A stretch of DNA of 64,000 nt, taken from assembly GCA_035480235.1 (NCBI GenBank), contig DATIHX010000003.1:21514-85513 (forward strand). Reading direction: 5' to 3'. Both the position numbers and the translations under genes were made by a program. Below the pieces are notes generated by a model, which saw only the letters and a program-made list of their open reading frames with translations, searched no databases and was not told where the DNA came from. This document shows positions 23,628 to 60,921 of this stretch, one piece after another (the stretch's first letter is position 1; the number at the start of each line of letters is the position of its first letter). This stretch comes from Candidatus Saccharimonadales bacterium (GTDB lineage: Bacteria > Patescibacteriota > UBA1384 > 2-12-FULL-50-11).

Positions 23628-23700
23628 GCGCCCGTAGCTCAGCGGATAGAGCGTTCGGTTGCGGTCCGAAAGGTCGCTGGTTCGATTCCAGCCGGGCGCA
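23628..23700 (+). tRNA. tRNA-Arg (anticodon GCG)
   Basis: GCGCCCG-TA-GCTCAGCGGATAGAGC-G-TTCGG-TTGCGGT-CCGAA...GCTGGTTCGATTCCAGC-CGGGCGC-A. Confidence 0.85.
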
Positions 23701-23722
23701 CGAAGTGGTTTGATTTTTATTA

Positions 23723-23814
23723 GCGCCCGTAGCTCAGTGGATCAAATCAGGTTTTTGTCCCCTGCGCCACTGGCACTCAGCCAGTTATTGTTTGCCTACG
23801 CTAGTGTAGGCCTC
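23723..23814 (+). pseudogene. Truncated tRNA-Arg 5' copy (23 nt) plus a unique tail
   Basis: Starts GCGCCCGTAGCTCAGTGGATCAA, then hairpin GGA(T)CAAA-TCAGGTT-TTTGTCC. No T-arm or 3' acceptor strand. Further hairpins: ACTGGC/GCCAGT and CCTAC/GTAGG. Confidence 0.5.
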
Positions 23815-23896
23815 GCGCCCGTAGCTCAGTGGATCAAGTTGGTAATCCTTGTCCCCTTCGCTCCGTTCGCTGCATTGTTCGCTTCGCTCACAATTT
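23815..23896 (+). pseudogene. Truncated tRNA-Arg 5' copy (23 nt) plus a unique tail
   Basis: Starts GCGCCCGTAGCTCAGTGGATCAA, then hairpin GGA(T)CAAG-TTGGTAATC-CTTGTCC, which carries a compensatory change relative to the previous copy. The tail contains four TTCGCT motifs. Confidence 0.5.
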
Positions 23897-23969
23897 GCGC
23901 CCGTAGCTCAGTGGATAGAGTATTGGTTTCCGGAACCAAGGGTCGGTGGTTCGAGTCCACCCGGGCGCA
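23897..23969 (+). tRNA. tRNA-Arg (anticodon CCG)
   Basis: GCGCCCG-TA-GCTCAGTGGATAGAGT-A-TTGGT-TTCCGGA-ACCAA...GGTGGTTCGAGTCCACC-CGGGCGC-A. Confidence 0.9.
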
Positions 23970-24125
23970 CAAAAAGAGAATCTCTAACCTGATCCCATTT
24001 CGCGAAGCAATAGCGGAGCGAATGTAAATGTAAAATACATTTCTCATGTGAGAGGGCCCGTAGAGTTAGTTTTCCTAAACGTCGTTATCGGCGCAAATAA
24101 CATAGCGTGCGCGCAACAAAATTTG

Positions 24126-25401: not shown

Positions 25402-25563
25402 TAGCTCAATCCTCCGGATTGAGAAATCCTAAATACTAAACTCGAAGCGCTAGACAAGCTCAAAATTCTAATTCCCCAATGTTTTAAACATTCGGATTTG
25501 GGTAATTGGGATTTGTTTCGGATTTCGAGCTTAGGACTTAGGGTTTCCCGCATCTTTTTTATC
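25402..25563. repeat. Imperfectly palindromic intergenic element, copy B (arms around the central palindrome AATGTTT-T-AAACATT)
   Basis: Central palindrome at 25478..25492. Left arm 25422..25450 matches the reverse complement of 30323..30348 at about 22/24 positions. Right arm 25496..25547 is homologous to the reverse complement of 30233..30278. Confidence 0.65.
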
Positions 25564-26417: not shown

Positions 26418-27830
26418 TTGCCCCTTGTGGAAAACTCGGCTATCTTCAAGCCGATGCCCGCAACAATCGACGAGAAAACCTGGAGCCATGTCTTAGCGGC
26501 CTTGGAACCGAGCGTCTCGCGGCCCAATTACGTCACCTGGTTGCAGCCGACGCGATTAGTGGAACTAAACGACGGCTTGGTTATTATCGCCGTCCCCAAC
26601 CCGTACGCCAAAAACTGGATCGAGAAAAACATTCTCAAGGATATCCGAAAGTTTTTAGCCACCGAAGTCGGGCCGATCGAGCACATTCAGTTAGTTGTCG
26701 CCGAAAAAGAAGAGAAGCGACCGTTGGATGAGTTACCCCTCCTGCAAAATACCGAGGATTACAGCCCCAGCGCCGTGCCAGTTGTTGACCAAGTCGACTC
26801 AGTAGCTAAGGAAAAACAATTCAATAGCCACTACACCTTTGAGACATTTATTGTTGGTAATAATAACCGCTTGGCTTTCGCCGCCAGCCAGGTGGTGGCC
26901 GAAAAACCCGGCGAGTCGTACAACCCCCTCTTTCTGTACGGCGGCGTTGGCTTGGGGAAAACCCACCTCATGCAAGCGATCGGCAACGAAATTGCCAAGC
27001 GCGACCCGAAAAAGAAAATCATCTACACTTCTTGTGAAATTTTTACCGGCGAATTTATCGAGGCGCTGCAAAACAAAACCATCAACGCTTTCAAGAAAAA
27101 GTACCGAGGGACCGACGTCTTTTTAATCGACGACATTCAATTTTTGGTTAACAAAGAGGGGACACAAGAGGAGTTTTTCCACACCTTTAATATCCTCCAC
27201 CAAGCCAACCGGCAAATTGTGATAACGAGCGACCGCACCCCGAAAGAAATTACCAAACTCGAGGATCGCCTGACTAGCCGGCTGGGTTGGGGGATGGTCG
27301 CCGACATCCAGGCCCCCAATATCGAGACCCGAACGGCGATTCTTCAAGCCAAAGCCAAAGAAAAGGGCGTCGATATCAGCCACGAGGTGCTCGATTACGT
27401 CGCTAGCGCTATTACTTCCAACGTCCGCGAGCTCGAGGGGTCATTGGTGAAGCTAATTACCACCGCCCAGATTGAAAAAGCGCCGATCACCAAAGACTAC
27501 GCCAAAAAGGTTTTGAAAGATTTAGCCTCCAGCCACAGCAGCGGCAAAAAGATTACCGGTAAGCAGCTCTTGAAAGCGGTGGCGACACATTTTGATATCG
27601 AGGTTAGTGACTTACTGGGGAAAAAGCGGCTGAAAGAGTTGGTCTATCCGCGCCACTTGGCAATGTATCTCCTTAAAGAAAACCTCCACCATTCATTCCC
27701 CCAGATCGGCGACGAGCTCAATAAAGACCACACTACGATTATGCACGGCGTCCGGAAAATTGAGGAACAACTCAAGACCAACCAACACATCGAAGCGGAC
27801 CTGCGAGCAATTGAAGGAGTAATTAATTAA
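26418..27830 (+). CDS. dnaA: Chromosomal replication initiator DnaA
   Basis: AAA+ motif GGVGLGKTHLMQAIGNE, box VII, C-terminal DNA-binding helix-turn-helix ...DHTTIMHGVRKIE. The start is uncertain: TTG 26418, GTG 26427 or ATG 26454. Confidence 0.9.
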   Translation: MPLVENSAIFKPMPATIDEKTWSHVLAALEPSVSRPNYVTWLQPTRLVELNDGLVIIAVPNPYAKNWIEKNILKDIRKFLATEVGPIEHIQLVVAEKEEKRPLDELPLLQNTEDYSPSAVPVVDQVDSVAKEKQFNSHYTFETFIVGNNNRLAFAASQVVAEKPGESYNPLFLYGGVGLGKTHLMQAIGNEIAKRDPKKKIIYTSCEIFTGEFIEALQNKTINAFKKKYRGTDVFLIDDIQFLVNKEGTQEEFFHTFNILHQANRQIVITSDRTPKEITKLEDRLTSRLGWGMVADIQAPNIETRTAILQAKAKEKGVDISHEVLDYVASAITSNVRELEGSLVKLITTAQIEKAPITKDYAKKVLKDLASSHSSGKKITGKQLLKAVATHFDIEVSDLLGKKRLKELVYPRHLAMYLLKENLHHSFPQIGDELNKDHTTIMHGVRKIEEQLKTNQHIEADLRAIEGVIN

Positions 27831-29170: not shown

Positions 29171-30232
29171 ATGCCCTTAACGACGCTCAAATTAGAGAAC
29201 GTCCGAGCCTTTGAGCGCCAGAGTTGGGAATTTGGCCCCCGTTCGGTTATTCTTGGCGCTAACGGGGTAGGTAAAAGCACAATTATCGAAGCGATCCGCA
29301 TTCTCTCGGTGGGGAAAAGTTTCCGGACCAGTCGGTTCGACGAGCTAATTCGTTTTGAGGCGCCGTATTGTCGGATTATAGGGGAACGCTCGGAAACAGA
29401 GGGTGAAGCCAGCTCTTCGGCTTCGCTCAGAGTGCCTGCGGCAAAAGTTGAGTTTTTCTACGGCCAGCCGTTCGCCGACGCTGCCAAAGAGCGAATTTTA
29501 ACCATTAATAGCAAGCCGGCTGACTGGTTGGGGTTTATCGGCCAATTCCCCAGCGTCCTCTTTGTGCCGAGCGATATCGATTTAGTCATCGGCCCGCCGC
29601 AACTGCGCCGCCGTTACCTCGACAGTATTTTGTGGCAAGTTGACGCCGAGTTTCGCCAGAATTACTTAGATTTCTCACGGGTTTTGCGGGAGCGAGCGGC
29701 GCTGCTTTTTTTACTGAAGATCCGCCGGGCCGGACTGGATGAACTCCAACCCTGGAACGAATTAATTCAACAGCTGAGCGCGGCCATTCAAACTAAGCGG
29801 CAACAGTACATTGAGTACCTGCAAAAGCAGTTGAAGGGGCAGCTCGTGGGCGGCCAAAAAGTGGCCGTGGAGTACCAACCGAATCAAGCTGAGCTAGCCG
29901 CTGTCCAAAACCAAGAAATTCAAAGTAGCCAGAATTTGTACGGCGCTCACCGCGACGAATTGGAAATTTTGCTGGGCGACCGGTCGGCCAGGCGGTTCGC
30001 CTCGCGCGGCCAAACCCGGACGATCGTAGTGATGCTAAAAACCGTTGAGAGCCGGTTTTTAGCCTTCAAGTCCGGCCAGGCACCATTATTACTGCTCGAC
30101 GACATGTTTTCTGAATTAGACGACGAGAATAGCCGCTACCTTTTTGATAGTTTTGAACCAGACTATCAAGTAATCCTAACCTCGATTAAAACGCAACCGC
30201 TCATCAAAGATTGGCAAACCATAAAACTCTAA
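29171..30232 (+). CDS. recF: DNA replication and repair protein RecF
   Basis: Walker A GANGVGKSTIIEAI, signature and Walker B region LLLLDDMFSELD. Follows dnaN. Confidence 0.85.
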   Translation: MPLTTLKLENVRAFERQSWEFGPRSVILGANGVGKSTIIEAIRILSVGKSFRTSRFDELIRFEAPYCRIIGERSETEGEASSSASLRVPAAKVEFFYGQPFADAAKERILTINSKPADWLGFIGQFPSVLFVPSDIDLVIGPPQLRRRYLDSILWQVDAEFRQNYLDFSRVLRERAALLFLLKIRRAGLDELQPWNELIQQLSAAIQTKRQQYIEYLQKQLKGQLVGGQKVAVEYQPNQAELAAVQNQEIQSSQNLYGAHRDELEILLGDRSARRFASRGQTRTIVVMLKTVESRFLAFKSGQAPLLLLDDMFSELDDENSRYLFDSFEPDYQVILTSIKTQPLIKDWQTIKL

Positions 30233-30358
30233 ACACTAAGTTCTAAACTCTAAACAATGCTCCAATTACCAAAATTACAATGTTTAAAACATTCAAAAGT
30301 TATTTTTTTGATTTTGCTTAGAGCTTCGAATTTAGGATTTAGGATTTGTTTTTCCTAA
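30233..30358. repeat. Imperfectly palindromic intergenic element, copy A (central palindrome AATGTTT-A-AAACATT)
   Basis: Central palindrome at 30279..30293. Arms are CTAAGTTCTAAACTCTAAAC... and ...GAGCTTCGAATTTAGGATTTAGGATTTG. Inverted relative to copy B on the + strand, but in the same orientation relative to the flanking transcription. Confidence 0.65.
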
Positions 30359-46810: not shown

Positions 46811-47200
46811 TTACCGCAGTTGCCCGAGCGGCGACGTTGGGTCGATTTTTTGGTCGAGCAGCGGATTCAGCTGTAAGGCCTTGGCTTTTAGTTCGCTGTG
46901 ATAGGCACTAGCCAGGTAGACGGCGTCAGGGTTGGTTGGGGCCAAGGCGTAAGCTTTTTCGACCACTGGCCGCACTAATTCGGGCCGGATTTTGTTGAGG
47001 CGTTTGGCCAGGCTGATCAGGCGCGGCCCGTCGGTTTGGGTGGCTAGGAACGTTTTTAAATCGGCCTGCGTGGCGGCTAAGCTTTTGGTGGTATTGGCGG
47101 CCGCTTGCGCCTGGAAGTCATTCTTTTCCCAATTCCAGAAAGCCAGTAACCCGAGAACAACAATAGCAGCCGGTAAGTAGAGCCAAAAGCGGTTACGCAT
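46811..47200 (-). CDS. Membrane-anchored hypothetical protein
   Basis: 129 aa with an N-terminal TM helix. Overlaps the valS stop by 8 nt. Confidence 0.45.
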   Translation of the reverse strand: MRNRFWLYLPAAIVVLGLLAFWNWEKNDFQAQAAANTTKSLAATQADLKTFLATQTDGPRLISLAKRLNKIRPELVRPVVEKAYALAPTNPDAVYLASAYHSELKAKALQLNPLLDQKIDPTSPLGQLR

Positions 47201-49325
47201 CGAACATCGTTTGGTTAATTTCAGTGACTAAAAACGGTGCGAAGTCGGAGAGGAGCACCAGGAGGCGCTTCAAGCTATCTTGGAGGACGGCTTCGGCTTG
47301 GGCTTTCCGGGTTTCATCGGCCGATTCCAGCAGCACCTTTTTCTCGTATTCCAACAGCTGATCGGCGAAGTCGTGCCAGAAAAATTCGTAGAGTTCCTCA
47401 AGGGCCAAGCCGAGTTTGTAGGTTTTGAAATCTTTGTGATTACTTTCTTCAAGCCTGCTTAATTTTTCCAAGAATTTTTTCTCTGTTTCATCTAGTTGTT
47501 TCGGATTTGGGATTTGGGATTTAGAATTTCCCGTTGAGGCTACGAAACGGGCGGCATTCCAAATTTTTGTCACAAAATTCCGGTATTTGAGCAATTTTGT
47601 CTCGGTATAGCGTTGCGGCAGCCCCGGGCTGTTGCCGCCGATTAAGCTCATCCGCAGGGCGTCGGAGCCGTATTTATCAATTAAAGCTAACGGATCCATC
47701 GTGTTGCCTTTGCTCTTGCTCATTTTTTTGCCTTGATCGTCCAGGATTAGGCCGTGGAAAAGTACCTCTTTGAACGGGATTTCGCCGGTTAGAGCTTGGC
47801 TCATCATGATCATTCGGGCGACCCAAAAAAAGAGAATATCTTGGCCCGTTTCGAGAAAACTCGTCGGATAGTATTCTTTCAGGTCGGGAGCAGTTTTATC
47901 CGGCCAGCCTAAAGTGGCGAGCGGCCACAAGCCGGCCGAAAACCAGGTGTCGAGCGTGTCCGGGTCTTGTTCCATCGCGCACTCGCCGCAGATCGGGCAA
48001 ACTTTTGGTTTTTCCAAAGCAACGATAAATCCTTCATTATTTTTGGGATTTGATTTTTGGGATTTGGTTTTTGCTGACCAGTTCTGGCAGTGCCAGACTG
48101 GCAGCTCGTGTCCCCACCAGAGTTGGCGCGAGATACACCAGTCATGGAGGTTGTTGAGCCAATGGAAATACACTTTCTCCACATTTTTTGGCGTGAATTT
48201 TATATCACCCAATTTAACGGCTTTCAGGGCAGCGTCTTTGAGCTCGGTCGTTTTCATGAACCACTGGGTGGAAATCAGCGGTTCGATAATGGCGCCGGAG
48301 CGCTCCGAAATCGCTACCCGGGCGTTGTAGTCGGTGACTTTTTCTACTAAACCTAATTCCTCGAGCTTTTTGACGATTGGCTCGCGGGCCTCAAGCGCCT
48401 TTAACCCAGCCCACTCGCCAGCTAAGTCGGTCAGCTTGCCGTATTTATCGATCGTTTGAACGACAGGCAGGTTGTGGCGCTGCCCGGCCTCAAAGTCGTT
48501 TTTATCGTGAGCGGGGGTAATTTTAACGGCGCCGGTGCCGAATTCTGGGTCCACAAACTCGTCAGCGATCACGGGTAACTTTTTCTTCTGACCAGTTGCC
48601 AAAACGATTTCAACTTCCTGGCCGACGTATTTTTCGTAGCGCTTATCTTTCGGGTTGACCGCAATGGCGACGTCGCCGAACTGGGTTTCCGGGCGGCTGG
48701 TGGCGACGGTCAGCGGACCGTATTTTAGCCAATACAACTTGGCTGGCCGGTCTTCGTTCAAAACCTCGTCGTCGGAGATGGCGGTTTGCAGTTTTGGGTC
48801 CCAGTTGACCAAGTATTCGCCGCGGTAAATCAGTTTTTTCTCGTACAGCTCCACAAAAGCAGTTTTAACGGCTAGCTGCGAATGCTCGTCCATCGTGAAG
48901 CGGAAATGCCCCCAGTCGGCCGAGAGGCCGAAGCGCTTCAGCGACTCTTTAACCCGTGGCAGATAATGGGCGGTCCAATCCTGAACTTCTTCAAGAAATT
49001 TCTCGCGGCCGAGTTGCGTTCGTGATAAGCCCTTTTCTTTCTGGATTTTCTTTTCCACCAACGCTTGAACGGCAATGGCGGCGTGGTCAGCGCCTGGTAC
49101 CATTAGCACTTTTTTGCCGTGCCGGCGGGCGTGGCGCGCCACGGTATCTTGCAAGCCGTAGGTTAGAGCGTGACCCAGGTGTAAATCACCCGTGACGTTC
49201 GGCGGCGGTATGATAATTGAAAACGGTTCGCCGCTGCCCTTGGGCTTAAATTCGCCAGCCTTTTCCCATTTTTGGTAAATCTCAGCTTCTTTGGTGTGAT
49301 CAAAGCGGGTAGGTATTTCGGTCAT
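47193..49325 (-). CDS. valS: Valyl-tRNA synthetase (short form, 710 aa)
   Basis: Class I motifs HLGHALTYGLQD and KMSKSKGN. Editing-domain motifs TSRPETQFGDVAIAV and GTGAVKITPAHDKNDFE. Confidence 0.85.
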   Translation of the reverse strand: MTEIPTRFDHTKEAEIYQKWEKAGEFKPKGSGEPFSIIIPPPNVTGDLHLGHALTYGLQDTVARHARRHGKKVLMVPGADHAAIAVQALVEKKIQKEKGLSRTQLGREKFLEEVQDWTAHYLPRVKESLKRFGLSADWGHFRFTMDEHSQLAVKTAFVELYEKKLIYRGEYLVNWDPKLQTAISDDEVLNEDRPAKLYWLKYGPLTVATSRPETQFGDVAIAVNPKDKRYEKYVGQEVEIVLATGQKKKLPVIADEFVDPEFGTGAVKITPAHDKNDFEAGQRHNLPVVQTIDKYGKLTDLAGEWAGLKALEAREPIVKKLEELGLVEKVTDYNARVAISERSGAIIEPLISTQWFMKTTELKDAALKAVKLGDIKFTPKNVEKVYFHWLNNLHDWCISRQLWWGHELPVWHCQNWSAKTKSQKSNPKNNEGFIVALEKPKVCPICGECAMEQDPDTLDTWFSAGLWPLATLGWPDKTAPDLKEYYPTSFLETGQDILFFWVARMIMMSQALTGEIPFKEVLFHGLILDDQGKKMSKSKGNTMDPLALIDKYGSDALRMSLIGGNSPGLPQRYTETKLLKYRNFVTKIWNAARFVASTGNSKSQIPNPKQLDETEKKFLEKLSRLEESNHKDFKTYKLGLALEELYEFFWHDFADQLLEYEKKVLLESADETRKAQAEAVLQDSLKRLLVLLSDFAPFLVTEINQTMFDA
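47504..47533. repeat. Element-arm-like tract inside valS, in frame (encodes SKSQIPNPK)
   Basis: GTTTCGGATTTGGGATTTGGGATTTAGAATTTCCCG is collinear with GTTTCGGATTTCGAGCTTAGGACTTAGGGTTTCCCG at 25516..25550. Confidence 0.75.
48040..48074. repeat. Second GGGATTT-type tract inside valS, in frame (encodes KTKSQKSNPKN)
   Basis: TTTTTGGGATTTGATTTTTGGGATTTGGTTTTTGC, located within the Cys-rich insertion WHCQ...CPICGEC. Confidence 0.65.
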
Positions 49326-57056: not shown

Positions 57057-57917
57057 ATGTTAATCTACGTTACTGGCAGCGACGCTTATCTGGCGAAACA
57101 GGCGATCGACCAATTAAAGGCCAAATATTTAGCTAAAAACGACGGCGCTGAGCTGATTGAAATTAACGCCGATGAAACGTTACCAAACTTCGCCGACTTG
57201 CAGGCGGTGCCGCTCTTTGCCACTTCGCGACTGGCGATTATTAAAAAGGTGGGCGTGCTTGATGGCGCAACGCAAGACAGTTTGGCCAGCGTTTTAGGCA
57301 GTTTGCCGCCAACCACCGTCGCCGCGGTCTGGGACCAGAAACCGCTCGCGGCTAAATCAGCGTTAGCGACAACGCTAAGCGGGGCAGCGAAAAAAATTGT
57401 CGCCGAAGCTTTAGACGAACCGGCCACCCGCCGCTGGATTCGAGCCCGCTCCCAAGAGCTCGGCCTGCAACTGGACGAGGCAGTTGTGAGTAGTTTGTTA
57501 AGCGCCGGTGGCAACGACCTCTGGTTTTTGGAAACCGAGTTACGATTCTTGGCGACGACAGCGGGTGGAAAAAACGACGACCGGCCCCGCCAAACCGCCA
57601 GACCCGACGATTATTTTGTTTACTACCGCTTGGTGCGCCAAAAAGCTTGGGCAAAAATCGGCCGGCAGTTGGCCGCGGATTTTCAGGGCGGTACGCCGTT
57701 TGAATTGCTGCTCGGCAGCCTGGCCGCCGCCGTCCGCAAAGAAGCCGTCGACCAGCCCGAGAATCGGCCGGTAGTGGAGCTGCTGGGCGATGTCGATTTC
57801 GGCACTAAAACCGGCTTGCTTGAGCCCGGCGCCGCGATCGCCCTGCTGGCCCACCGCCTTTCCAACCCGGCCGGTAACCGGGTACACTGGGAAGCGATGT
57901 GGGAGGGGTTAGTTTGA
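57057..57917 (+). CDS. holA: DNA polymerase III delta subunit-like
   Basis: 286 aa. The N-terminal MLIYVTGSDAYLAKQAIDQLKAKY... pattern is typical of short HolA proteins. Confidence 0.55.
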   Translation: MLIYVTGSDAYLAKQAIDQLKAKYLAKNDGAELIEINADETLPNFADLQAVPLFATSRLAIIKKVGVLDGATQDSLASVLGSLPPTTVAAVWDQKPLAAKSALATTLSGAAKKIVAEALDEPATRRWIRARSQELGLQLDEAVVSSLLSAGGNDLWFLETELRFLATTAGGKNDDRPRQTARPDDYFVYYRLVRQKAWAKIGRQLAADFQGGTPFELLLGSLAAAVRKEAVDQPENRPVVELLGDVDFGTKTGLLEPGAAIALLAHRLSNPAGNRVHWEAMWEGLV

Positions 57918-59407
57918 AAAAACATCAGTCGAATTGGCATGAGTTATTCTCTACTGTCCAGCTCAGTAAAAAGAGCCTGGGTTTTTTCGTCGCAGTCGCT
58001 TTGGTGGCTGGCGGGTTGTATTACCTCTGGCACTCGCCGCTTTTGGCTGAGGCGCCGATTAACCCGACGGGTACTGGAGTGGCGCCGAACGTCATCGACA
58101 TCACCCTGAAAAGCAACGGTAATTTGTATCTAGGATCGGTCAAATTGCCGGCCGAGATTTTTAAAGGCTTCAACACCTACCGCTACCGTTACCAAGTTAT
58201 CAACCAGCCCACCGATTTCATCGACCAATTAGTGGTTGACGTGACGCTGCCCCAAGCCGGCACCGAGCAAACCGTCGGCCACGCTTTGGTGAGTAATGGC
58301 GGCGCTAGCGAAGTGAACAGCCAGCTCATTAACCCGACGACGGTCGAGTTCACGGCGCTGGGGATCTCTAACCAAGCCCAATTGGCAATCGAGCTGGAAG
58401 TGCCGCAGAGCTTCGTTCAACAATCGTTTTTATTCCAGGCTCAGCAGTATCTGGCCGAGCTCCCGACCACGATTTGGCTGGGGATCTCGATTGGTTTGCC
58501 ACTCCTCACGGTTTTACTTTTGTTATTTGTGGGCCTGGGCCGGAACCGCAACGTGCCGACGCCAACCGCTCAAGCCATCGAATTACCGAGCCGCCTGCCG
58601 CCAGCGATCTTGGGGATTCTCTGGAAGGGCCGGCTGACCAGCCGCGAACTAGCAGCGACGCTCCTAGATCTGGCCAGACGGGGCCATTTGATTATTCGGC
58701 AGGTCTCGGCCGACGATTTTCGTTTTCGTCTCCTGTCGGGCGGCGATACCTTAAACGACTACGAACAGTCACTGATCGAGCAGATTTTTGGCGCTGATGC
58801 CGATAGAGCCAATACCGAAGAAATCAGCTTCGGTCTGGCCCAAGAAGTCTTCAGTAAACGGGTTTCGCAGGCCTTTTTGCTCGCTTACAAGAAAGTCAGC
58901 GATCTTGGGTATTTTTATACTAATCCGTTGGCCCTCCACCGCCGCTACCAAATCATTGGTATTCTTTTGTTTATTCTCGGGGCAGCCGGCTTCGGCGCCA
59001 ATTTGTTATTTATCACCACTGTTCGCTACAGTCTCTTCTTTTGGGTGGGGATGATGGCAGCGGCATTAGCCGTAACCTATTTGGCTAAATCGCTGCCGGT
59101 CCGGACCGTTTACGGCGACCGGGAGATCGGCCGCTGGCTGGCTTTCCGCAGCTACTTAACTGCCAAAGAGCCGATTAACTATGTCGCTCACAGCCAGGAG
59201 CAGTTTCTGGCCTACCTCCCCTACGCCGTCGTTTTGGACGTGGAACGCGAGTGGACGCGCCGCTTTTTCCACTTGCCGTTTGCTCAGCCTTCGTGGTACG
59301 TAGCGCCAAACGTTAGCACCATTGACGACTTTACGAACCAGATTTTCCCGCTTTTTGGCTACCTGTCGCACGCTTTAGCGCTGACGGCCCAACCAGCAGC
59401 GCAATAG
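57899..59407 (+). CDS. DUF2207-like membrane protein
   Basis: N-terminal TM helix, a roughly 170-aa extracytoplasmic domain, then TM plus RELAATLLDLARRGHLIIRQV and C-terminal TM helices. Confidence 0.55.
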   Translation: MGGVSLKKHQSNWHELFSTVQLSKKSLGFFVAVALVAGGLYYLWHSPLLAEAPINPTGTGVAPNVIDITLKSNGNLYLGSVKLPAEIFKGFNTYRYRYQVINQPTDFIDQLVVDVTLPQAGTEQTVGHALVSNGGASEVNSQLINPTTVEFTALGISNQAQLAIELEVPQSFVQQSFLFQAQQYLAELPTTIWLGISIGLPLLTVLLLLFVGLGRNRNVPTPTAQAIELPSRLPPAILGILWKGRLTSRELAATLLDLARRGHLIIRQVSADDFRFRLLSGGDTLNDYEQSLIEQIFGADADRANTEEISFGLAQEVFSKRVSQAFLLAYKKVSDLGYFYTNPLALHRRYQIIGILLFILGAAGFGANLLFITTVRYSLFFWVGMMAAALAVTYLAKSLPVRTVYGDREIGRWLAFRSYLTAKEPINYVAHSQEQFLAYLPYAVVLDVEREWTRRFFHLPFAQPSWYVAPNVSTIDDFTNQIFPLFGYLSHALALTAQPAAQ

Positions 59408-59467
59408 CGAAAAATTCCAAAACTCAAGCACCGAATACCAAACAAATAACAATTACTAAATCTTAAA
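59408..59467. repeat. Left flank of the four-helix-bundle gene, resembling the left arm of the intergenic element
   Basis: AAAATTCCAAAACTCAAGCACCGAATACCAAACAAATAACAATTACTAAATCTTAAAC contains CCAAAx/CTAAAT-type repeats like those at 30233..30278. Confidence 0.45.
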
Positions 59468-59812
59468 CTACTTTTCAGAACTAGTAATAATTGCCGAGAA
59501 TATTTTTATCAATTCGGTTGCTTCACGAATTAATTTGCTGGGGTCTGCTGAAGATTGACTATTACTTTCCAAGAGCTCAAGCCAGTATCGACTTTCTCGG
59601 GCCTCTTTACGAGAAATTTTCAGTCGCATAATGAAATCTTTCTTACTTAGCGACTCATTTGCTTCAATGTAATTCGCCCCAATAGAGCCTGATGAGCGAA
59701 CCAGCTGTTTACTATCCTCGTTGACCGTTGCAGATTTTGTTAGCTCATTACAGAAAATCCTCACATCTTTTGCGAACTTCATCGTGCGCTCCTCAAGGTC
59801 GTATCGTTTCAT
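59468..59812 (-). CDS. Four-helix-bundle protein (23S rRNA intervening-sequence protein family-like)
   Basis: 114 aa. MKRYDLEERTMKFAKDVRIFC...GSIGANYIEANESLSKKDFIMRLKISRKEARESRYWLELL. Confidence 0.75.
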   Translation of the reverse strand: MKRYDLEERTMKFAKDVRIFCNELTKSATVNEDSKQLVRSSGSIGANYIEANESLSKKDFIMRLKISRKEARESRYWLELLESNSQSSADPSKLIREATELIKIFSAIITSSEK

Positions 59813-59869
59813 AGGTTTGATACTCGGAATTTATGATTTGTTTGTTTTTTGTTATTTGGAGCTTGGTAT
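59813..59869. repeat. Right flank of the four-helix-bundle gene, resembling the right arm of the intergenic element
   Basis: ...GATTTGTTTGTTTTTTGTTATTTGGAGCTTGGTATTTAGTAAG. GAGCTTGGTATTTAG matches GAGCTTCGAATTTAG (30321..30335) at 12/15 positions. Confidence 0.45.
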
Positions 59870-60427
59870 TTAGTAAGTTACGTGATTAATATAACTTAGC
59901 TTGCCCAGCGGCCAGACGATAAAGCTAATTCGGCCTTGAATGTCGCTGGCTTGAACGGGGCCCCAAAGGCGGGAGTCGCTGGAACCCGGCCGGTTGTCGC
60001 CGCAGAGGAAGTATTCTTTACTGCCTAGCTTTAGGTTGGTGACTTCCTGGTACGGCGGGGCGGCAATGATCGGCCCGTAGGCGCTTTCATCAAGAATCTG
60101 GCCGTTGACGGTAATAACGCCGGCCTTAGCGCTAACGGTATCGCCGGGTAAGCCGATTACCCGTTTAATCAGCCGGGTGTGGCTGGCATCGGCCGGGAAT
60201 TTGGCGGCTACCACGTCGCCACGCTGGAGTTTTGAGGCGTTAAAGTTGACGCGTTGAACCAGCACTAGTTCGCCGGTGGCGAAATTGGGGTCCATGCTGT
60301 GGCCGTCTACCGGTAGTGGCACGCCCAAAAAGACGATCGCCATCACGGCCAGCACAATTAAAACCGCCGCCACCTTAATGAGGTTGAAGAAGTTAATTAA
60401 CCCACTCGAAAAACGTGAACCGGGCAT
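59870..60427 (-). CDS. lepB: Signal peptidase I
   Basis: VDGHSMDPNF (catalytic Ser), RGDVV, KRVIGLPGD (catalytic Lys), GDNRPGSSDSR. Confidence 0.9.
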   Translation of the reverse strand: MPGSRFSSGLINFFNLIKVAAVLIVLAVMAIVFLGVPLPVDGHSMDPNFATGELVLVQRVNFNASKLQRGDVVAAKFPADASHTRLIKRVIGLPGDTVSAKAGVITVNGQILDESAYGPIIAAPPYQEVTNLKLGSKEYFLCGDNRPGSSDSRLWGPVQASDIQGRISFIVWPLGKLSYINHVTY

Positions 60428-60463: not shown

Positions 60464-60811
60464 TTACTTTTTGGTAGTTTTCTTAGCAGCAACCTTTTTT
60501 GGAGCGGCTTTCCCGCCCTGAGCTTGTCGAACGGGTTTAGTAGTGGCTTTAGCTTTAACGCTCTCGCCTTTGGTCGTTTTCGGTTTAATAGTGCCAACTT
60601 TTTTAGCGATCTGGCCTTTCAGGCGAGCGGCTTTGTTGGGGTGGAAGATCCCCCATTTAGCGCCTTTATCGATCATCGAGATGGCGCCAGCAGCGCTGTC
60701 GGCCGAGACATTTTTCAGCGCTTCTTTAATTACCGCCTTGCGGTGGCGGTTGACGGCGGTTTTGCGCACGGAGACGCGCCAGGATTTTTTAGCAGATTTC
60801 GAAATTGGCAT
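60464..60811 (-). CDS. rpsT: 30S ribosomal protein S20 with a Lys-rich C-terminal extension
   Basis: MPISKSAKKSWRVSVRKTAVNRHRKAVIKEALK... 115 aa, against about 87 aa typically. Confidence 0.85.
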   Translation of the reverse strand: MPISKSAKKSWRVSVRKTAVNRHRKAVIKEALKNVSADSAAGAISMIDKGAKWGIFHPNKAARLKGQIAKKVGTIKPKTTKGESVKAKATTKPVRQAQGGKAAPKKVAAKKTTKK

Positions 60812-60921
60812 TCTCCGACAAGCTTACCTGAAATTTGGAAAAGTGTAAATAACCCGCTTGTCGAATTTTCAATTATCAATAATCAATTTTCAAATAATAT
60901 CCAATGTATCAATATTCAATC

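Follow-up and report, generated by a model that had tools for sequence, protein, structure and literature searches.

Why a small gene of the type known from the intervening sequences (IVSs) of 23S rRNA should lie between two protein genes, flanked by short repeats resembling those of two gene-less palindromes on the same contig, is the question raised by positions 59408-59869 of the stretch of DNA analysed here, a 64,000-nucleotide window of contig DATIHX010000003.1 (positions 21,514 to 85,513; hereafter the window). The host is a genome of the Candidate Phyla Radiation (CPR, Patescibacteria), and the more distant relatives of the DUF2207 protein encoded next to this gene are labelled Berkelbacteria. 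The product of the gene, at 59468..59812 on the minus strand, is a PF05635/TIGR02436 four-helix-bundle ('23S rRNA IVS') protein, and on balance we favour the reading that gene and flanks form a mobile PF05635 cassette with inverted arms of heptamer repeats, IVS-like in character and lodged in the spacer of an mRNA operon.

The gene, its heptamer arms and their recurrence around homologues

The 114-amino-acid (aa) protein was assigned to PF05635 (55.1 bits against a Pfam cut-off of 33.8) and to TIGR02436, 'four helix bundle protein' (77.4 bits against a cut-off of 24), and was found by phmmer to match the structure with PDB entry 2RLD at 1e-12. An AlphaFold2 (AF2) model with a predicted local distance difference test score (pLDDT) of 93 placed helices at residues 7-22, 28-53, 57-84 and 92-113, and Foldseek returned 2RLD and 2GSC as the top matches to this model (template modelling, TM, score 0.78-0.85), with Avd next, well below. 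The motif GxxRxxxSxxxNxxE, which is conserved in the four-helix-bundle family (PMC3936711), was present as R39, S43, N47 and E50, all invariant in the homologue alignment, with Q36 replacing the glycine. The family membership proposed in a preliminary description of this DNA is confirmed by these results. The structure 2RLD has five chains and the solved relative Xcc0516 is a toroidal homopentamer (PMC4990558); the solved relatives 2RLD, 2GSC and Avd are pentamers, and by homology with these the 114-aa protein would be one too. Its predicted isoelectric point (pI) is mildly basic, at 9.0, and the GC content of its open reading frame (ORF) is 40.6%, with the neighbouring genes at 54-55%. Relatives are very numerous, with thousands at 56-70% identity and 6854 representative clusters at E<=1e-3. 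The start at 59812 is taken to be correct because homologues align from residue 2, and the public NCBI annotation, which uses an internal methionine to give 104 aa (59783-59812 left off), is too short. Most homologues carry 6-7 extra N-terminal residues (MTEIQNS) derived from heptamer-like DNA, which have been lost in the window copy.

The 462 bp at 59408-59869 are exactly the stop-to-stop spacer between DUF2207 (57899..59407, plus strand, stop codon 59405-59407) and lepB (59870..60427, minus strand, stop codon 59870-59872). The gene had been described as lying on the opposite strand between these two, which is right for its position and with respect to DUF2207, but it shares its strand with lepB, which lies 5' of it and is co-directional, with rpsT (60464..60811, minus strand) upstream of lepB on the same strand.

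Read in the sense of the gene, the upstream flank runs CTAAATACC AAGCTCC AAATAAC AAAAAAC AAACAAA TCATAAATT CCGAGTATCAAAC CT ATG. The 5' arm of the cassette (59813..59872, minus strand) comprises the heptamers AAATACC AAGCTCC AAATAAC AAAAAAC at 59844-59871, the outermost overlapping the lepB stop codon (59870-59872), then AAACAAA, and an inner stem half, CCGAGTATCAAAC, at 59815-59827, separated by 2 nt from the ATG. After the gene, which is the cargo in the cassette loop, the 3' arm (59408..59467, minus strand) contains the other inner stem half, GTTTGGTATTCGG in gene sense (59431-59443 on the plus strand), and an array at 59412-59439 that is antisense to the gene, and the arm ends 1-2 nt from the DUF2207 stop. 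Together the halves give a 13-bp inner stem (59815-59827 with 59431-59443, including two G.U pairs on the sense strand) in which the 13-mer CCGAGUAUCAAAC pairs with GUUUGGUAUUCGG, located 24 nt past the stop codon of the gene, and the complementarity between the two flanks is 28/37 in one register.

Scanning the window for four in-phase AAATnXY heptamers (score of at least 19 of 24 specified positions, with block-shuffled windows as control) gave 10 hits, against 0.3 expected per block-shuffled window. Two of these were the flanks of the gene, 59412-59439(+) and 59844-59871(-), inverted to each other, and the remainder were the arms of the two gene-less palindromes (elements A and B, described below), three arrays inside ORFs and one unrelated AT repeat; the repeats noted earlier in the left flank as resembling an element arm are therefore real. 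In a motif-free scan the best repeat period was 7 in both flanks (0.68 for the 5' arm). An nhmmer profile of the 5' arm, which is too short and of too low complexity for such a search, had no match in the window, Rfam held no family for the unit or for A or B even at E<=1, and no PADLOC model matched the cassette.

Strong support for the cassette comes from other genomes; the window locus alone is only modestly significant. Homologues of the gene were examined at 80 metagenome loci (given L numbers), of which 68 were evaluable for counts of both arms. Nearly all shared an upstream consensus, AAATCCG AAGCACG AAATTCG AAATTCG AAACAAA TTCAA-ATG, and a downstream consensus, stop-(GTTTTGAACATTTGAATT)-TGTTTCG GATTTCG ATATTCG AATTTCG AATTT. 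The 5' arm of the window unit is organised like the upstream consensus. The upstream sense array was present in 57/68 loci and the downstream antisense array in 58/68, and both arms were found in 49/68, compared with 1/77 non-IVP (intervening-sequence protein) ORFs of the same contigs (Fisher 1e-21). Without any motif being specified, period 7 was best in 61/69 upstream and 57/69 downstream flanks, compared with 12/96 control windows. The earlier expectation that other four-helix-bundle genes would have such flanks was thus upheld, and the signal is specific, not a general trait of AT-rich spacers. Mismatched upstream/downstream flank pairs were unusable as an inverted-repeat control, the arms being alike between loci. 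The ATG-anchored CPR profile has about five heptamers per arm at a fixed distance to the ATG, and the last two bases of the heptamer (CG, CT, CC or AC; its 'flavour') vary by lineage and match between the two arms of a unit (CG/CG in 24, CT/CT in 8 and AC/AC in 5).

PF05635 genes were also located by tblastn on plasmids of Nostoc, Anabaena, Planktothrix, Gloeocapsa, Pseudanabaena and Euhalothece, and of Chlorohelix (Chloroflexota), Bernardetia and Chondrinema (Bacteroidota), Treponema, and Monoglobus (Bacillota), while a search of a phage collection gave two partial matches only. Across twelve non-CPR loci, representing Cyanobacteriota, Chloroflexota, Bacteroidota, Spirochaetota and Bacillota, period 7 was best in 23 of the 24 flanks, with lineage-specific heptamers (GTAAAAA, AATCCCC/AAATCGT, GAAGGAT, GGAAAGT/CTCTCCG, ACTGGTC) that were mostly inverted and with repeat numbers ranging widely, from 4 to 12 or more. 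Conservation of the cassette architecture around genes of this family extends beyond CPR to at least five other phyla. IVS-type cassettes make up a very large family, of which the window locus is a somewhat decayed representative.

The non-CPR genes (L094-L105) were found in the operon spacers cas2/cas1, drmD/MmeI, hsdS/hsdR, DUF1156/Swt1 and RND adaptor/permease, and the site at DUF1156 and the Swt1 HEPN gene was occupied by a PF05635 gene in both Gloeocapsa and Chlorohelix. The cas2/cas1 placement agrees with an earlier report of PF05635-type genes inside cas loci (PMC3936711).

Insertion sites and gene-less elements

The gene order polA-holA-DUF2207-lepB-rpsT was kept in genomes whose DUF2207 proteins were 56-84% identical to that of the window. 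A scan of genome contigs with DUF2207 gave only one 31%-identical, non-syntenic locus, and synteny was recovered via the contigs of protein homologues. The DUF2207-lepB site is a variable slot: the spacer of L089 was 92 nt long without arrays; L086 (5540-5740), L088 (5510-5707) and L092 (4515-4718) had in this position an unrelated 65-67-aa ORF with no Pfam hit, coming after an ordinary GC-rich terminator hairpin; and L087 (5510-5917) had a 135-aa ORF, again without a Pfam hit. In L090 and L091 (DUF2207 60% identical) the spacer was 28 nt and was itself a solo array of CTAAA-type heptamers (L090 4487-4521, L091 3746-3780), in the same site and orientation as the DUF2207-side arm of the window unit; this array may have been left behind by a lost unit, or the site may be a preferred target. 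Elsewhere in approximately 31 kb of the four closest relatives no heptamer arrays were found.

L090 and L091 also had an RVT_1 reverse transcriptase gene of 353-368 aa (L090 1050-2156, L091 317-1415) directly upstream of holA-DUF2207, in the place that polA occupies in the other relatives.

Comparison of units with one another showed those of L018 and L064 to be 89% identical and those of L017, L023 and L024 to be 80% identical, with the likeness running only from arm tip to arm tip; outside the arms of both groups identity was 16-51% and tblastx found nothing. Close relatives lack the cassette at this site, and near-identical units occur in unrelated flanks. Among the homologue loci, units were co-directional with the upstream gene in a ratio of 63:6 and with the downstream gene in a ratio of 56:7, and the modal gap from upstream stop to ATG, 38-46 nt, equalled the length of an arm. 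Insertion is nearly always sense-oriented and between co-directional genes, and the gap from stop to ATG is taken up by the 5' arm. GC skew could not place the origin, and orientation to transcription was therefore not separable from orientation to replication. The ratio of nonsynonymous to synonymous substitution (dN/dS) between related ORFs was 0.06-0.15, and the arms of the trio L017/L023/L024 were 78-87% identical where synonymous divergence (pS) was 0.61-0.65; protein and arms are both under purifying selection. Taken together, we hold the claims for the identity, architecture and mobility of the cassette with high confidence.

The two gene-less palindromes of the window are element A (25424..25546, minus strand), between yidD and yidC of the rpmH-rnpA-yidD-yidC operon, and element B (30224..30354, plus strand), between recF and a 94-aa ORF. 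Both are in the canonical orientation to host transcription, A having the order AAAT-type arm, AAACAAA, ATG, and B having a left arm that begins at the recF stop codon. They matched each other at 78% over 86 nt, and as RNA both folded into strong hairpins (z=-5.2/-4.3 for A and z=-3.0/-4.3 for B). The preliminary description had placed the four-helix-bundle gene where the central palindrome of such an element would be, and the comparison agrees: the 5' flank of the gene and the left half of A run collinearly (16/20, followed by AAACAAATC at 9/9 and by AAAT(T)CCGA), and the inner stem of the unit corresponds to the central palindrome of A, CCGAATGTTTAAAACATTGG, in the form CCGAATGTTT/AAACATTCGG. 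As the inner stem is the split central palindrome of A, the gene sits in the loop of a central palindrome of the A/B type. A 15-mer of the right flank that had been given as matching the right arm at 12/15 positions in fact matches the arm of B at 13/15.

Around the homologues, the 80 loci contained approximately 15 distinct elements that have no ORF but the same arms and flavour, and several of these elements retain ATGACCAAAAtTCAAAA, the first codons (MTKIQNSK) of the family. One at L051, which has a full unit as its neighbour, could be aligned to that unit in three parts, these being ACA-ATG with 11 codons (33/37), the last 4 nt of the ORF with the following 18 nt (21/22, including the stop codon), and the 3' arm (40/45). 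This short element is the full unit minus 331 nt of ORF body, a clean internal deletion, and ORF-less elements beyond L051 keep ATGACCAAAA.. as well. Gene-less copies arise by internal deletion of the gene-bearing unit. Elements A and B, which have the inverted terminal repeats, small size and several copies of miniature inverted-repeat transposable elements (MITEs), are probably such deletion derivatives, given the collinearity of the 5' arm, the split palindrome and the analogy with L051, and the earlier suggestion that the short palindromes are cargo-less derivatives of an IVS-like unit is supported to that extent.

In-frame runs of the heptamer AAATCCC (coding strand) were seen at 39922-39970, 47495-47536 and 48038-48072, all in minus-strand ORFs, the hosts being a VirB4-like ATPase gene (38089..40704) and a class I aminoacyl-tRNA synthetase gene (47193..49325). 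These runs encode KSQIPNPKSQ-type peptides and consist of a single arm in gene sense with no inverted partner. Elsewhere in the window, two tRNA-Arg genes (GCG and CCG anticodons) at 23628-23970 have between them a 23-nt tRNA 5' end in two copies (GCGCCCGTAGCTCAGTGGATCAA, one at 23723 and one at 23815), neither copy being called as a tRNA by ARAGORN or Rfam, and a weak Rfam match to AsdA, an antisense RNA of dnaA mRNA, inside dnaA at 26937-27017(-) (28.6 bits against a gathering threshold of 52, E=0.007) is probably due to chance.

Proposed mechanism and competing explanations

On the minus strand the stretch from lepB to the ATG showed no promoter-like site, and sigma-70-like sites on that strand here lay only upstream of rpsT; for this reason the mRNA probably comes from read-through of rpsT-lepB, in the manner of an rRNA IVS. 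The cassette would then have no promoter of its own and be transcribed with its host operon. In the transcript, the two arms would fold back on each other in any heptamer register, enclosing the start codon; the arms and the motif after the stop codon are complementary to the region running through the ATG and first codons. RNase III might cut the fold-back stem, as it does in rRNA IVSs, and/or the pentameric protein might bind the repeats, and this cutting and/or binding would set the expression of the gene and end the host transcript. We put forward the RNase III and fold-back mechanism tentatively; it ranks first among the mechanisms considered.

A short AT-rich repeat upstream of rpsT, AATTTTCAATTATCAATAATCAATTTTC at 60862-60896, overlaps the promoter-like hexamers there; it scores in the heptamer scan on both strands, and its motif differs.

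Several results count against this mechanism or against the broader reading of an IVS-like mobile cassette. The flank pair folded as RNA only slightly better than shuffled sequence (z=-2.3 in sense, with 8/300 shuffles as good, and z=-1.65 in antisense), covariation gave no support for pairing of the arms as an RNase III substrate, and the whole unit, at z=-0.9, folded no better than shuffles. Arm mismatches compatible with G.U pairing numbered 112 in sense and 108 in antisense, with 257 transversions, and therefore nothing singles out an RNA stem on the sense strand. Across 32 units with both arms anchored, the variable heptamer positions matched in register at 0.55, 0.41 and 0.27, compared with control values of 0.61, 0.49 and 0.35 between loci and 0.49, 0.40 and 0.35 after a shift of one heptamer, and the unit-specific heptamer positions were the flavour positions only. 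The arms thus lack pair-specific complementarity, so the RNase III stem is one that we infer. They act as inverted arrays of a single motif, capable of loose pairing whatever the register, a behaviour that fits a fold-back recognised by RNase III or another factor and fits a protein reading the repeats at least as well.

Within the window, the likeness of the flanks to the halves of A and B was modest (p~0.015 and 0.0065 against 616 AT-rich windows; z~2.3 in a gapped comparison), making fair the earlier caveat that the similarity was imperfect. The likeness of A and B to the gene-bearing unit was modest too, and neither has any ORF remnant beyond the ATG. Inspection of five aligned unit ends, of A and B and of the window unit showed no target-site duplication, and no transposase or reverse transcriptase was found in the window or within 3 kb at the 80 loci. 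A copy of the gene inside 23S rRNA, which the preliminary description had suggested looking for, was not found either: there was no rRNA-borne PF05635 gene, nor any rRNA, in the window or in the 80 homologue loci.

The loose pairing of the arms bears directly on an explanation that overlaps with the favoured one, in which the heptamer arrays are binding sites of the encoded toroidal pentamer on single-stranded RNA or DNA, one heptamer per subunit. The inverted second array would then only mask or mirror the first, and the unit would be a self-recognising module with no RNase III stem. This would account for the arms being kept as motif arrays and not as base pairs, for a flavour that is locus-specific and common to both arms, and for arms that are more constrained than synonymous sites. 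The number of about five heptamers per arm is in keeping with solved relatives that are homopentamers, the Avd pentamer sits in an RNA-protein complex (8UB7), a 7-nt period, we infer, misfits the helical repeat of duplex DNA, and C-terminal columns of the protein track the flavour. On the other hand, repeat number varies widely in other phyla, from 4 to 12 or more, the basic character of the protein is no more than mild (pI 9.0), and the correlation of protein with flavour may reflect nucleotide overlap of ORF and arm and is confounded by ancestry. We consider the explanation possible, at a fairly low probability.

The columns concerned are 121, 128 and 131, which have, for example, arginine in CG-type and glutamate in CT/AC-type units (43 homologues, loci L005-L084). 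This tracking could reflect recognition of the repeats by the protein or, equally, overlap of the ORF 3' end with repeat-like DNA, or ancestry.

More doubtful is a DNA-level mobile element, whose arms would be terminal or subterminal inverted repeats for a transposase or recombinase supplied in trans, with the four-helix-bundle gene as a passenger or accessory factor and the short elements as MITE-like derivatives. Short-motif arrays at the two ends are a typical feature of transposons. Homology that ends sharply at the arm tips in unrelated flanks, the presence of the unit in the window genome and its absence from the same site in relatives, the existence of internal-deletion derivatives, and mismatches that are symmetric as for a DNA palindrome are all as such an element would have them. 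It is, however, weakened by the lack of a transposase or reverse transcriptase and of a visible target-site duplication (searched as above), and the 63:6 sense bias is unexpected for cut-and-paste transposition, although it could come from single-strand, replication-linked insertion. That the unit is in operon sense yet on the minus strand to the right of dnaA is a weak point against it, as the origin was unplaced by GC skew.

The heptamer hairpins might instead be generic, slippage-prone spacers independent of the gene, in which PF05635 genes insert or survive preferentially. Solo arrays do exist, both in the L090/L091 spacer and inside ORFs of the window, gene-less hairpins are common, and hairpin repeats of 7 bp between co-transcribed genes are known as the short tandemly repeated repetitive (STRR) elements of cyanobacteria (PMC2670836). 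We think this improbable, as the arms move together with the gene and keep a fixed distance from the ATG, the gene-less element of L051 retains the ends of the ORF, and approximately 31 kb of the closest relatives are without any array. Chance likeness of a small gene in an AT-rich spacer, or an Avd gene of a diversity-generating retroelement (DGR), is extremely improbable, for although the window-only statistics are modest and Avd has a related fold, the enrichment across genomes is overwhelming, and tblastn with an RVT_1 protein found no reverse transcriptase in the window or the 80 loci, on which ground the DGR reading was rejected.

Implications and comparison with known systems

For the favoured reading of a mobile PF05635 cassette with inverted heptamer arms, the practical consequence is a rule of annotation, that a PF05635 gene and its two arms be treated as one inserted unit. 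The ORF of rRNA IVSs has been without a function, and the IVS without a known means of spread, since 1993, and the STRR heptamers have been unexplained since 1990; if gene and arrays are one cross-phylum cassette with gene-less derivatives, these two puzzles merge into one testable problem, and the cassette would also account for one class of short palindromes in CPR genomes and for the odd peptide repeats that occur in frame there. A more speculative extension, which we regard as unlikely, is that PF05635 proteins and heptamer hairpins form a single self-recognising module across Bacteria, with the pentamer reading its own flanking repeats. If so, this module would spread not only into operon spacers but also into rRNA, RNase P RNA and even coding sequences, and ORF-bearing rRNA IVSs, STRRs and the short palindromes of CPR would be footprints of one system. 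As far as could be found, a family of IVS-type cassettes outside rRNA has not been described before, and in the full text searched no link between heptamers and PF05635 was found beyond the description of Coxiella, although subscription journals may hold one.

Small palindromic repeats such as MITEs, repetitive extragenic palindromes and bacterial interspersed mosaic elements (REP/BIME) and the Rickettsia palindromic elements are one class for comparison. Like these, A and B are short, multi-copy, palindromic and intergenic, their counterparts in related genomes derive from a longer gene-bearing unit by internal deletion, and related heptamer arrays also occur in frame inside genes. They differ in having a parent unit without transposase or target-site duplication, in their strong sense orientation, and in arms that are periodic arrays and not unique terminal inverted repeats. 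The Avd protein of DGRs (4DWL, 8UB7) is a homologous four-helix bundle that likewise forms a pentamer and a nucleic-acid complex (PMC10053308), but near the window gene there is no reverse transcriptase and no pair of template and variable repeats.

The cyanobacterial STRRs are 7-bp tandem repeats of unknown function that form hairpins between co-transcribed genes (PMC2670836), and the elements of the window share with them both the 7-bp tandem hairpin repeats and this placement. In Nostoc, Planktothrix and Euhalothece the arrays beside PF05635 genes resemble STRRs, which have, however, not been described in the searchable literature as arms of a gene cassette or tied to PF05635, and the host of the window is a CPR bacterium. 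STRRs (Mazel 1990; Vioque 1997) also reportedly occur inside the gene of a structured RNA, that of RNase P, which is a further likeness to an IVS-type unit.

The closest parallel is with the rRNA IVSs of Leptospira and Coxiella. The 23S IVS of Coxiella burnetii is 428 nt long, with a 28-bp terminal stem and an S23p ORF that reads in the same direction as the rRNA transcript; directly before the ATG stand 3-4 tandem heptamers (GACAGAT), the Shine-Dalgarno sequence is poor, and RNase III cuts at the first repeat (PMC4990558). In CPR, some insertions in 16S and 23S rRNA genes carry 23S_rRNA_IVP ORFs (PMC11270868). The window unit differs in lying between protein genes and not in an rRNA helix, in having arms of 4-5 heptamers on each side that are approximately 65-80% complementary where the Coxiella stem is a near-perfect 28 bp, and in belonging to an ORF family under strong purifying selection where the Coxiella ORF is decaying; cutting by RNase III is known for Coxiella and is a tentative proposal for the window unit. 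What the two have in common is an S23p/PF05635 ORF in the loop between terminal inverted repeats, which in the window unit may form a stem, a size of 428-444 nt in the IVSs and 462 nt in the window, an ORF in the sense of its host transcript without a good Shine-Dalgarno sequence, tandem heptamers directly upstream of the ATG, and a patchy distribution of the horizontal type.

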